This document shows, piece after piece, positions 61,477-64,000 of a stretch of 64,000 nucleotides of DNA. The notes under the pieces were generated by a model. That model did no database searches. It was given only the letters and a program-made list of their open reading frames with translations, and had not been told where the DNA came from. Each line of letters starts with the position of its first letter. Position 1 is the stretch's first letter. Made by a program: the position numbers and the translations under genes. This DNA comes from an uncultured Verrucomicrobiota bacterium (lineage in GTDB: Bacteria > Verrucomicrobiota > Kiritimatiellia > RFP12 > UBA1067), in contig CAMOFK010000003.1 of NCBI GenBank assembly GCA_946613265.1, positions 24,790 to 88,789 of the forward strand, in the 5' to 3' direction.

Positions 61477-62226
61477 CTAGATGCGCGCGGCATCGCGGAC
61501 GACGAGGCCGGCGAGCGTGAAGCCGAATATGGCCGTGACATGCGCAAGCGAGCCGTTCGCGCGCGAGCCGTCCGCAGGGGGCAAGGCGTTTTCGCGGTTC
61601 TCCGGACTCCAGACGCAGGTGAAATCGCGCTCGGGCATGCCGCCGGATTTGCGGAAAATCCGCCTGAGCGCGCGCGCCAGCGGATCGCCGGCGACCTTGC
61701 GGAAAAGCCCGGCGCCGACGGCGCACGGATCCACCTTGCGCGCCGCGCCCATGGAGGAAAAAAGCTTTAGCGACGGGATCGAAAGCGCATGGCGGATCAG
61801 CGCCGCCTTGCTCTCCAGCGAATCGATCGCGTCGATCGCGTAATCGAAGTCCTCGAGCTTGAAGGAAGCCGCGTTCGCAGGGCTGTAGAATTCTTCGCGC
61901 ACGTCGAGGCGGATGGCAGGCGAGATTTCGCGCAGGCGCTCCGCCAGGACTTCGACTTTGGCGCGCCCGAGCGTCGCAGTCGTCGCCATGACCTGGCGAT
62001 TGATGTTGCTGGCGGCCACCTTGTCGAAATCCACCAGCATCAGCATGCCGGCGCCGCTGCGCGCCAGCGCCTCCGCGCACCATCCGCCGACGCCGCCAAG
62101 CCCGAAAATCGCCACTCGCGCGTTCCGCAGCGAAGCCATCGCGTCTTCGCCCAGCAGCATCCGCGCGCGCGTCAGGCTTTCCGCGCGCACCTCGTCCTGC
62201 GAGAGAGCCGGCATGGCTAGGCTCAC
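61477..62226 (-). CDS. tcdA: tRNA threonylcarbamoyladenosine dehydratase (ThiF/HesA family)
   Basis: GTG at 62226 (GTGA overlap with upstream stop; alternative ATG at 62214). VAIFGLGGVGGW...LVDFDKVAASNINRQ. Confidence 0.8.
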   Translation of the reverse strand: MSLAMPALSQDEVRAESLTRARMLLGEDAMASLRNARVAIFGLGGVGGWCAEALARSGAGMLMLVDFDKVAASNINRQVMATTATLGRAKVEVLAERLREISPAIRLDVREEFYSPANAASFKLEDFDYAIDAIDSLESKAALIRHALSIPSLKLFSSMGAARKVDPCAVGAGLFRKVAGDPLARALRRIFRKSGGMPERDFTCVWSPENRENALPPADGSRANGSLAHVTAIFGFTLAGLVVRDAARI

Positions 62227-62837
62227 ATGTTGTTCACGTTGCCGATGAGGACGGTGTTGAACGACTTGAGAATATTGGAAATCATGTCGTAGGACTGGTC
62301 GCGCTTGGCGGTGAGCGACTGCAGCTCGATCATCTTCTGCTGGCTGAACGAGTTCTTCTCGTCCATCTTCGCTTCGAGGCGCGAGATGAATTCATCGTAC
62401 GAAAGCTGCGAAGAGGACGGCGTGCCCCAGATGACAACCTGATTGCCGGGAAGCGACAGGCCGACGTCGCTCATCGTCAGGAAATCCTTATACGTCTTGC
62501 CCTTGTACTGGCCGCTGGAAATAGTGTGCGAGGAAAGATTGTACGTCGCAGTCGAAGTTTGCGAGCCCGCCCAATCGACGATCTTCGTCTCGATCTCCGA
62601 AAGCGCCTCGAGCGTCGCCGTGGTGTTGTTCATCGTATTCATCAGCGAGATGATGTCGCTCTCGAGCTTGGCGGCGCGCTCCAGGCAAATCGCCATGACG
62701 AGCTGGCCGATGGAAAGCGGCCGCGTCGCCCCTGTCGCGTCCGTGACGCCATCAACATAATATATGTTGGCGGTGAGGCGCCTGCCGTTTTCCGGGCTGC
62801 GCATCGAAAGGTCTATTGTATCTACAGAGTATGACAT
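62223..62837 (-). CDS. Axial-filament-like protein, paralog 1 (T3SS needle/EspA-like C-terminal helix)
   Basis: GGAGAA Shine-Dalgarno. 204 aa, no signal peptide. The C-terminus QQKMIELQSLTAKRDQSYDMISNILKSFNTVLIGNVNNM aligns co-terminally with SctF/EspA-type helices. Confidence 0.45.
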   Translation of the reverse strand: MSYSVDTIDLSMRSPENGRRLTANIYYVDGVTDATGATRPLSIGQLVMAICLERAAKLESDIISLMNTMNNTTATLEALSEIETKIVDWAGSQTSTATYNLSSHTISSGQYKGKTYKDFLTMSDVGLSLPGNQVVIWGTPSSSQLSYDEFISRLEAKMDEKNSFSQQKMIELQSLTAKRDQSYDMISNILKSFNTVLIGNVNNM

Positions 62838-62859
62838 GGCGGGAAGTTCTCCAAGGTGG

Positions 62860-63369
62860 TTAGAAATTCTGTGCGTCCTGGGTCATGGACTGTGCGAGCG
62901 TGCGCGCGACGCCGGAGCCGGTCGAATACGCGACGTCGCGGCGGTTGACGAGCGTCTGGAGGTCGATCATGTTCTGCTGCTGGAGCTGCGAGAGGCTGCC
63001 GATCTTGTCTTGAAGCGCGGCGGCCGCGCGCATGCGCTTGTCGTAGCTGTCTATGTTGTCCGGGAGCGCGCTCGACGGTATGCCCAGGCTGGCGACGAGG
63101 AAATTGCGCGCCGCCGACCAGTTGGCCGAGCCATCGACGATCTTCTGGAGCCAGTCTGCGGCCTCGTCTAGAGTCTGGTTCTTGGACGCGATCATATTCA
63201 TCTTTATGACGCTCTGGGCCTCGCTCGCGGCGGCGGCGCGCAGGCAGACGGCCTGCATGAGCTGCGAGAGCGTGAGATTGGAAGCGTAGTCGTAAGAATA
63301 CAGATTGATCGATTCGCTCCCTTGCGGAGCGTAGCGATTCACTGCGATCTCTACGGTGTACATCGCCAT
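62860..63369 (-). CDS. Axial-filament-like protein, paralog 2
   Basis: GGGAGA Shine-Dalgarno. 169 aa. The C-terminus QQQNMIDLQTLVNRRDVAYSTGSGVARTLAQSMTQDAQNF ends in QNF, as PrgI/MxiH do (IIQNFR). Confidence 0.45.
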   Translation of the reverse strand: MAMYTVEIAVNRYAPQGSESINLYSYDYASNLTLSQLMQAVCLRAAAASEAQSVIKMNMIASKNQTLDEAADWLQKIVDGSANWSAARNFLVASLGIPSSALPDNIDSYDKRMRAAAALQDKIGSLSQLQQQNMIDLQTLVNRRDVAYSTGSGVARTLAQSMTQDAQNF

Positions 63370-63383
63370 AGCCGCGTCTCCCT

Positions 63384-63920
63384 TTACAGATTCTTGATGA
63401 GGTTGGCGCGCGTATCGCTGATGGCCGTCATCAGGTTGGTGGCCGTCGAATAGGATTCATCGCGGCGATCCACGATGGATTGCAGGCGCGTCATATCCGC
63501 CTGCGCCTTGTTGTTGAGGCTGTCGATCGCCGATTTCACCTTCTGGATGTGGAAGGTGAGCCAGCGCTTGGTATCGTTTTTCGGGGTGGGGCGGTCGCCG
63601 TAGAACTTTTGGCATATATCGCACGTTTCATCCTTCAGCGTGTAGTTGCAGGAGGTGTTGCCTCCCGCATCGCTTGGCAGCGTCGCCTCCGCGGCCGTCA
63701 GGTCGGCGAGCGCGGAGCCGAGCTTCTCGAGATCGGTGTTGCGCTGGCGCATGCGCGCGGACATAGGAGCGACTTCGCCTTCGACGGCGACGGCGCGCGA
63801 CTCGCTGATCTCCACCATGAGGTCCTGGAAATCGACGGCCTTGCCGTTGATCTTGTAGTCGCTGAAAGTGACGTTCTTGCCCCAGTTCTGGCTGAGCTGC
63901 ACGTTATTGGATTCTATCAT
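63384..63920 (-). CDS. Axial-filament-like protein, paralog 3
   Basis: GGAGGG Shine-Dalgarno. 178 aa. C-terminus AQADMTRLQSIVDRRDESYSTATNLMTAISDTRANLIKNL. Confidence 0.45.
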   Translation of the reverse strand: MIESNNVQLSQNWGKNVTFSDYKINGKAVDFQDLMVEISESRAVAVEGEVAPMSARMRQRNTDLEKLGSALADLTAAEATLPSDAGGNTSCNYTLKDETCDICQKFYGDRPTPKNDTKRWLTFHIQKVKSAIDSLNNKAQADMTRLQSIVDRRDESYSTATNLMTAISDTRANLIKNL

Positions 63921-63943
63921 GTCCCTGCCCTCCGGTAGCGATG

Positions 63944-64000
63944 CTACGAGATGTTCGAAATCGTGTTGCCTGCGGCGTTGAGAGCCTTGCGCACTATCTT
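63944..64000 (-). CDS. 3' end of a fourth filament-like gene (continues beyond window)
   Basis: Not in the ORF track. The minus strand reads ...KIVRKALNAAGNTISNIS-stop, which resembles the needle-protein terminus VKVFKDIDAAIIQNF. Confidence 0.35.
   Translation of the reverse strand, partial: KIVRKALNAAGNTISNIS

Follow-up and report, generated by a model that had tools for sequence, protein, structure and literature searches.

The distal end is the most variable and the least understood part of the injectisome, and the known type III secretion systems (T3SSs) use one tip or filament protein there. Tip proteins such as LcrV/PcrV and IpaD/SipD/BipD (SctA) have a central coiled coil and a distal domain, and their genes are found beside those of an LcrH-type chaperone and the translocators; the LcrV/IpaD-type tips are homo-oligomeric and about 320–340 amino acids long. 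In the bsc cluster of Bordetella, bsp22, which encodes a self-polymerizing tip filament, is placed together with the chaperone gene btc22 between the translocators and bopN (PMC7498569, Table 2). Bordetella ansorpii has three different open reading frames (ORFs) in place of bsp22, and EspA of Escherichia coli polymerizes on the needle as its extension (PMC7498569). We have analyzed a stretch of 64,000 nucleotides (hereafter, the window) from an uncultured Verrucomicrobiota bacterium (contig CAMOFK010000003.1, positions 24,790 to 88,789), which ends within a cassette of four paralogous genes, A to D (62223–64000, minus strand). The products of these genes are, with a probability slightly above one half (roughly 55%), secreted distal axial subunits of an injectisome that form a needle extension or a tip filament and that, being usually retained together, co-assemble.

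Genes D (62223–62837; 204 amino acids), C (62860–63369; 169 amino acids, ending in ...DAQNF), and B (63384–63920; 178 amino acids) were called as complete ORFs on the minus strand, D being the last gene of the cassette, and the window closes with the last 18 codons and the stop codon of gene A (63944–64000). The same three complete genes, with a terminal fragment of a fourth, had been described in an earlier reading made from the nucleotide letters alone (hereafter, the sequence-only reading). Contigs extending the window (L001–L006) were retrieved by exact-protein look-up, and a complete copy of gene A, which encodes 190 amino acids and carries the LQSLMSKRDNAFST motif, was found at L001 6186–6758. 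The genes in the cassette are separated by gaps of 22, 14, and 23 nucleotides. As had been claimed, each of the three complete genes has its own Shine–Dalgarno-like sequence of the GGAG type; namely, GGAG (62849–62852), GGGAG (63378–63382), and GGAGGG (63928–63933) were read on the minus strand 5' of the ATG start codons of genes D, C, and B, respectively. The proposed paralogy was evident from the pairwise BLASTP E-values of the three complete genes (1e-10, 2e-8, and 5e-6) and from comparisons of the subfamily profiles (96–99.6% probability). Also present is the common C-terminal block, LQ..x..RD..Y/F.., which extends to the complete fourth gene, and the N-terminal motif, L..L(M/V).A(I/V)CL.RA, can be recognized as well and is clear in the 204- and 169-amino-acid genes. 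On reading the sequences of the four products, neither a signal peptide nor a transmembrane segment was seen; type IV pilins were considered and rejected, as the N-terminal hydrophobic pilin segment is missing from the sequences. No Pfam or NCBIfam family was matched by genes B, C, and D of the window, and none of the 1316 homologs of D is annotated. A gene for a TcdA/ThiF-family enzyme (tcdA; Pfam and NCBIfam) follows gene D; the overlap of the last stop codon with the tcdA start, as described in the sequence-only reading, applies to the longest ORF, starting with GTG, but not to the ATG start in the gene calls of other contigs, which is located 8 nucleotides past the stop codon of the 204-amino-acid gene.

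On the extending contigs, genes B–D are preceded by gene A, a gene for a 571-amino-acid protein (k571), those for an SseC-type translocator and a SycD/LcrH chaperone, and then k328 and k118; ispF comes next, on the opposite strand and past this operon. The translocator (kSseC; 357 amino acids; L001 3143–4216) belongs to the SseC family (PF04888; 55.9 bits against a cutoff of 30.2) and was matched with EspD at 93.9% in hhalign, and the class II T3SS chaperone of the SycD/LcrH type was identified by TIGR02552 (130.6 bits against a cutoff of 104.8), by PF07720 (TPR_3; 5.5e-10), and by its match with E. coli CesD (5e-15). Because of this chaperone, the SseC translocator, and the other genes upstream, the window ends within a T3SS translocon operon, and the sequence-only reading was hence right in placing the border of a T3SS locus here. 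It had further expected the remaining genes, including those of the secretion apparatus, just beyond 64000; the translocon operon is indeed there, but the apparatus genes are not, and relatives have them on the opposite side of the cassette, where tcdA sits here.

Among the other members of this operon, k571 (L001 4337–6052) has a single hydrophobic segment and showed only a faint match with EspB in hhalign. In hhalign, its first 120 or so residues are similar (82%) to the N-terminal part of the SseC-like translocator, and the two proteins may bind a chaperone or be secreted through this common region. The product of k328 is an Ala-rich coiled-coil protein of 328 amino acids, for which NCBIfam gave generic coiled-coil matches only; hhalign revealed no relation of k328 to the cassette, the needle, EspA, or EspB, and no tip-family signal was obtained. 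At the head of the operon, k118 (118 amino acids) adjoins k328 and not the cassette. The Btc22 chaperone family was matched by 24 of the 31 k118 orthologs (best 2.9e-6) with no rival family; the match is weak, far short of the cutoff of that family (27.7 against 100 bits).

Scanning of the GTDB species representatives gave 80 loci, in which the window species is absent and the nearest match has 61% identity. The carriers are Kiritimatiellae, Lentisphaerae, Victivallales, and "Verrucomicrobia UBA" metagenome-assembled genomes (MAGs), for the most part from the guts of ruminants and other animals, with the exceptions of unlabeled "uncultured bacterium" MAGs and two apparently mislabeled bins; the named homologs are all from Kiritimatiellae MAGs. 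In an exhaustive HMMER search (E ≤ 1e-3), the family amounted to 1,079 clusters at 50% identity. A complete Kiritimatiellae-type T3SS cluster is present in L039 (labeled as Anaerovoracaceae) and L062 (labeled as Blautia faecis), and these labels probably reflect binning contamination or mislabeling.

The gene context was examined by searching six-frame ORFs of all loci with the proteins of the locus of enterocyte effacement (LEE) of E. coli O157 and of the L001 operon. These searches gave EscV homologs in 17 loci, with E-values as low as 3e-153; an EscC-type secretin was found in 27 loci and EscJ in 4. According to the gene maps and the family scans of L026, the genes are arranged co-directionally as k118-k328-LcrH-SseC-k571-A-B-C-D-(CesT-like)-SctC-206 aa-SctW/TyeA and then SycN-SctX-like-SctV-SctD-126 aa-SctF-SctG/CdsG-like-SctI-SctJ. 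SctW of L026 scored 110 bits against a cutoff of 89.5, and the matches of its SctD, SctI, and SctF were slightly under their cutoffs. SctV was best matched with Ysc-type SctV (788 bits) as compared with SsaV (474) and FlhA (407), and its C-terminal domain scored 387 against YscV and 286 against CdsV. An unassigned ORF of 182 amino acids, located in L026 between k571 and gene A, was found not to be of the cassette family.

When the linkage was counted in the 43 species-level loci having at least 3 kb on each side, T3SS genes were adjacent to the cassette in 29 of them: namely, on both sides in 14, as the translocon only in 12, and as SctC only in 3, leaving 14 with neither. Of 58 loci, 41 had translocon genes upstream of the cassette, and of 59 loci, 20 had an SctC-type secretin downstream of it, these genes being tightly spaced and in the same orientation. 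The tcdA junction after gene D occurs only in the window's species, and the linkage is complete in its nearest relatives (L014 and L018); the junction is therefore a derived break of the cluster. The cassette is thus part of a Ysc/Bsc-type injectisome cluster of gut Kiritimatiellae and Lentisphaerae. In L007 (10941–13565), the cassette is away from the translocon, is flanked by genes for a type II secretion system or type IV pilus, and is followed by a 710-amino-acid protein and a CesT-family chaperone, which are likely an effector–chaperone pair.

The possibility that A–D are the needle itself was rejected, because a separate and near-invariant sctF is present in the same clusters of the relatives; in this respect, the sequence-only reading, which had set the four proteins apart from needles, was correct. 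The true SctF (L026 18922–19287 and its orthologs) has about 120 amino acids with the C-terminus of ...LQQLQYDLQQWNLALTTMTNINKNMGDALNSIASNFR and was matched with PF09392 at 2e-5 and with YscF (2p58_B) at E = 0.025. Its C-terminal 50 residues are almost invariant across species, and its N-terminal extension of about 40–50 residues is variable. We then prepared a needle profile from eight Kiritimatiellae SctF proteins, EscF, and YscF. Subfamily C was aligned with this profile by hhalign at 90.5% (P = 1.3e-6), in which the last 40 residues are co-terminal and both end in N-F, and subfamily D was also aligned co-terminally at 50% (P = 1.6e-4); controls with reversed needles gave 1.2% or less. When 10,601 ORFs were searched with the needle hidden Markov model (HMM), furthermore, every hit was either a true needle or one of 41 cassette ORFs (38 of C and 3 of D-type; E-values to 7.8e-6). 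The needle family PF09392 was matched at E ≤ 1 by 46 of 104 diverse members of the cassette family (best 5.6e-5), with the next commonest family matched by 15 members, and was found in individual scans of three out of ten members, each time in a co-terminal alignment. YscF was second, in the same register, when PDB was ranked by the subfamily C profile, which was not significant (E = 0.19); a single EscF sequence matched the subfamilies weakly in hhalign, and no match with PF09392 at E ≤ 1 was obtained for the genes of the window. These profile-level similarities support, at the level of the family, a relationship between the C-terminal helix of SctF and that of C and, more weakly, that of D. 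A needle-like C-terminal helix had been proposed for all of the paralogs; this is retained for C and D but not for A and B, and the supposed PrgI-like terminus of the fourth gene is not supported, given that subfamily A has no needle signal.

The order A-B-C-D is kept in 63 of 90 loci, and the exceptions are mostly truncations or overlapping stop-to-stop ORFs. In hhalign, the four subfamilies form two deep pairs, A-B (99.5%) and C-D (99.6%), with the cross-pairs at 96–98% (B at about 98% with both C and D), and the identity among cassette orthologs is 40–60%. Genes C and D are found without A or B despite more than 6 kb of upstream sequence in L049, L057, L064, L082, and L085, and the pair in L057 is immediately 5' of sctC. 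Such C-D pairs hint that the cassette has two functional halves, A-B and C-D, which can be separated. In Victivallales, one to three extra D-like copies are present past gene D (L069 9893–12729, L071 847–2712, L077 9890–12495, and L084 720–2375), and up to seven cassette-family matches were counted per locus there as stop-to-stop ORFs. Among the matches listed (the best 150 of the representative search), there are also variants of 310–350 amino acids with two matched stretches.

AlphaFold2 models of D (predicted local distance difference test score, pLDDT, of 86) and C (pLDDT of 88.6) are mutually consistent and share a predicted fold composed of a three-stranded N-terminal beta element, a helix of about 46–50 residues, an insert, and a C-terminal helix of about 57–60 residues. 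Specifically, the D model has an N-terminal beta-hairpin, a helix at 43–92, an alpha/beta insert at 97–146, and a C-terminal helix at 147–203, and the C model has beta structure at 4–32, a helix at 34–79, a short helix at 84–94, and a helix at 109–168. The insert at the turn of the hairpin has about 15 residues in C and about 55 in D and is probably exposed to the surface. In every subfamily, conservation is highest in the C-terminal region of about 50 residues (3.3–4.0 bits) and lowest in the insert (0.8–2.0 bits in D), so that the middle is hypervariable. Conserved termini with a variable middle are the pattern of flagellin and EspA. No PDB sequence was matched significantly in either single-sequence or profile searches.

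Like SctF (YscF, MxiH, PrgI, and EscF), the cassette proteins are helical hairpins, and the C-terminal helix of C and D is co-terminal with that of the needle including N-F; they are, however, longer (170–205 amino acids as against the Pfam needle domain of about 71 positions) and have the N-terminal beta-hairpin and an insert of 15–55 residues at the turn. It is also the sctF gene, not the cassette, that is flanked by SctG-like and possible SctE-like neighbors. Bsp22, with about 205 amino acids, is similar in size to A–D. The cluster has the same order, SctW-chaperone-SctX-SctV-SctD-SctE-SctF, as that in Bordetella bsc (PMC7498569, Table 2), and the cassette sits at the position of bsp22; the likeness to Bsp22 is one of gene position, size, and operon content. 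A Btc22-like gene is in the operon of both, yet here it is beside k328 and not the cassette, and there are four conserved paralogs here instead of the single gene in Bordetella, for which the triple-ORF replacement in B. ansorpii is a precedent of a multi-gene set at the bsp22 position.

With EspA of enteropathogenic and enterohaemorrhagic E. coli and SseB of Salmonella pathogenicity island 2, the cassette proteins have in common the size of about 190 amino acids and a gene beside an SseC/EspD-type translocator, whereas EspA is encoded by a single gene and belongs to a T3SS of the Ssa-Esc family, unlike the Ysc/Bsc-like system here. EspA, too, has conserved termini and a variable middle. The echoes of EspA and flagellin motifs that the sequence-only reading had heard were not reproduced: the EspA/SseB family (PF03433) was neither matched by genes of the window nor among the families recurring in the 104 members, a single EspA sequence of E. 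coli O157 reached 1.3% at most against the subfamilies in hhalign, and no flagellin or hook family recurred in those members or, in the case of flagellin, was found in the window genes, flagellin cores appearing only as non-significant Foldseek matches. The flagellar proteins of the rod (FlgB/C/F/G) and of the junction, filament, and cap (FlgK/FlgL/FliC/FliD) offer an analogy only, as paralogous axial proteins with conserved terminal helices, which in flagella are stacked in a fixed order; flagellin shares the conserved termini and the variable center, but the system here has a secretin and is an injectisome. As for the SctA tips, their genes and the cassette are alike in being beside an LcrH-type chaperone and translocators, but the tips are much larger; no Pfam or NCBIfam match with LcrV/PcrV or IpaD/SipD/BipD was found in the genes of the window, and IpaD was ranked seventh in Foldseek with an E-value of 0.83 and a probability of 0.13.

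From the paralogy, the gene context, the fold model, the conservation pattern, and the C-terminus, we infer that A–D would be secreted, polymerize, co-assemble, and be served by a chaperone. After export via the needle, they would assemble on its end by means of their needle-like C-terminal helices, and the resulting extension or tip filament would link SctF to the SseC-type translocon, a comparable role being played by one protein in Bordetella (Bsp22), EPEC (EspA), and Salmonella (SseB). The Btc22-like k118 may keep one or more of A–D unpolymerized in the cytoplasm. The four old paralogs are, as a rule, all present and in one order, and for this reason they are probably not redundant but parts of one heteromeric or ordered assembly. 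A more specific and tentative version, which we consider possible but rather unlikely as a whole, is an ordered heteromeric distal structure of four needle-derived paralogs in which C and D would adjoin SctF and A and B would lie farther out, on the translocon side; C and D may be proximal because they are needle-like and are sometimes found alone with the apparatus genes. If true, such a structure would be the injectisome counterpart of the junction–filament–cap series in flagella.

Several observations weigh against the assignment of A–D to a distal axial structure. No apparatus genes are present in the window or in the 7 kb past it, and no match was found when the LEE apparatus proteins were searched against the window. 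In terms of the needle relation, subfamilies A and B gave no direct signal against the needle profile (<1% in hhalign), no member of the family reaches the gathering threshold of PF09392 (29.4 bits) or the curated cutoff of any EspA, tip, or flagellin family, and the window's own genes, including gene C, were not matched individually by the needle HMM. Some genomes have only C-D nearby, and 14 of the 43 loci have no T3SS gene within 3–10 kb. When both AlphaFold2 models were compared with PDB in Foldseek, generic helical hairpins were obtained (best E-values of 0.13–0.39), and such a hairpin is also found in cytoplasmic T3SS proteins including YscO. Finally, k328, which is beside the Btc22-like gene at an lcrV/bsp22-like position, could be the tip instead.

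The last point leads to the best-surviving alternative, in which A–D are non-polymerizing T3SS substrates such as hydrophilic translocator accessories, secreted regulators, or effectors with genes beside the translocon, and k328 or another protein is the tip. This would also account for the linkage of the cassette to T3SS genes and for the lack of a needle signal in A and B, and the cassette of L007, beside the 710-amino-acid protein and the CesT-type chaperone, is in a setting typical of effectors. Effectors nonetheless rarely keep four paralogs near-universally and in a fixed order over about 80 species, and the C-terminal 50 or so residues, which are best conserved and needle-like to the last residue, are typical of axial subunits; k328 is, furthermore, a generic coiled coil lacking a tip-family signal. 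We hence regard this alternative as unlikely, albeit one to be taken seriously.

Less probable still is that A–D are cytoplasmic hairpin accessories in the style of YscO/FliJ, LcrG, CesA, or YscE, which are neither secreted nor structural. Small helical-hairpin proteins are common as T3SS chaperones, and YscO (4mh6) was high in Foldseek with both models (rank 4 with a probability of 0.89 and rank 2 with 0.60), but those matches were not significant (E-values of 0.18–0.54) and were equaled by many unrelated hairpins. The sequence signal is instead specific to the needle C-terminal helix and co-terminal with it, a hypervariable middle with conserved termini is unusual in cytoplasmic chaperones, and the cluster already has chaperone candidates in k118, LcrH, SycN, and the CesT-like and SctG-like proteins.

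As a sub-variant of the distal axial reading, A–D might be minor needle subunits or needle-to-tip adaptors that co-polymerize within or directly on the SctF needle and do not make a long filament of their own. The relation of C and D to the SctF C-terminal helix and the occurrence of C-D without A-B nearby, directly 5' of sctC in L057, would fit with such a role. The hairpin helices of about 50–60 residues are, however, longer than those in the needle core alignment of about 85 residues, and we consider this sub-variant highly improbable. That the cassette has nothing to do with type III secretion and is adjacent to T3SS genes by coincidence, as the 14 of 43 loci without nearby T3SS genes and the absence of a curated family assignment might suggest, is hardly credible in view of the tight, same-strand linkage to the translocon and the secretin and of the needle-specific sequence signal.

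Kiritimatiellae and Lentisphaerae are relatives of Chlamydiae in the Planctomycetes–Verrucomicrobia–Chlamydiae (PVC) group and are generally regarded as free-living bacteria that degrade polysaccharides. Outside Chlamydiae, some PVC members, for example Verrucomicrobium spinosum, are known to have T3SS genes, and no description of a T3SS in Kiritimatiellae or Lentisphaerae was found in the searchable literature. If the distal axial reading is upheld, these abundant uncultured bacteria of the rumen and gut would be equipped with a Ysc/Bsc-type injectisome, which suggests that they interact directly with eukaryotes, be it the epithelium of the host or protists of the gut. To our knowledge, neither a conserved set of four needle-derived paralogs nor a multi-subunit needle extension has been described; such a set would, if upheld, represent a new architecture in which axial proteins were diversified by duplication. 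The family, which has no Pfam or NCBIfam model, is also a candidate addition to the annotation resources for T3SS.

Elsewhere in the window, a low-GC island (20236–22307, plus strand; 47% GC as against about 63% around it) contains two genes, the first encoding 327 amino acids that include NPPF, a typical motif of N6-adenine DNA methyltransferases, and the second encoding 363 amino acids with an HNH-like Cys/His C-terminus; from these sequence features, the island looks like a horizontally acquired restriction or defense module. A 505-amino-acid ORF at 59938–61455 (plus strand) would be an aroK-aroA fusion, since Pfam assigns to its L001 copy both a shikimate kinase domain (PF01202) and an EPSP synthase domain (PF00275). 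A leucine-rich-repeat protein of 251 amino acids with a lipoprotein-like N-terminus (...ALALFAGC) is encoded at 22986–23741 (minus strand), and proteins with such repeats are often involved in host interaction. A tRNA cluster, Gly(TCC), Leu(CAA), and Ser(GGA), is located at 5492–5774 on the plus strand.

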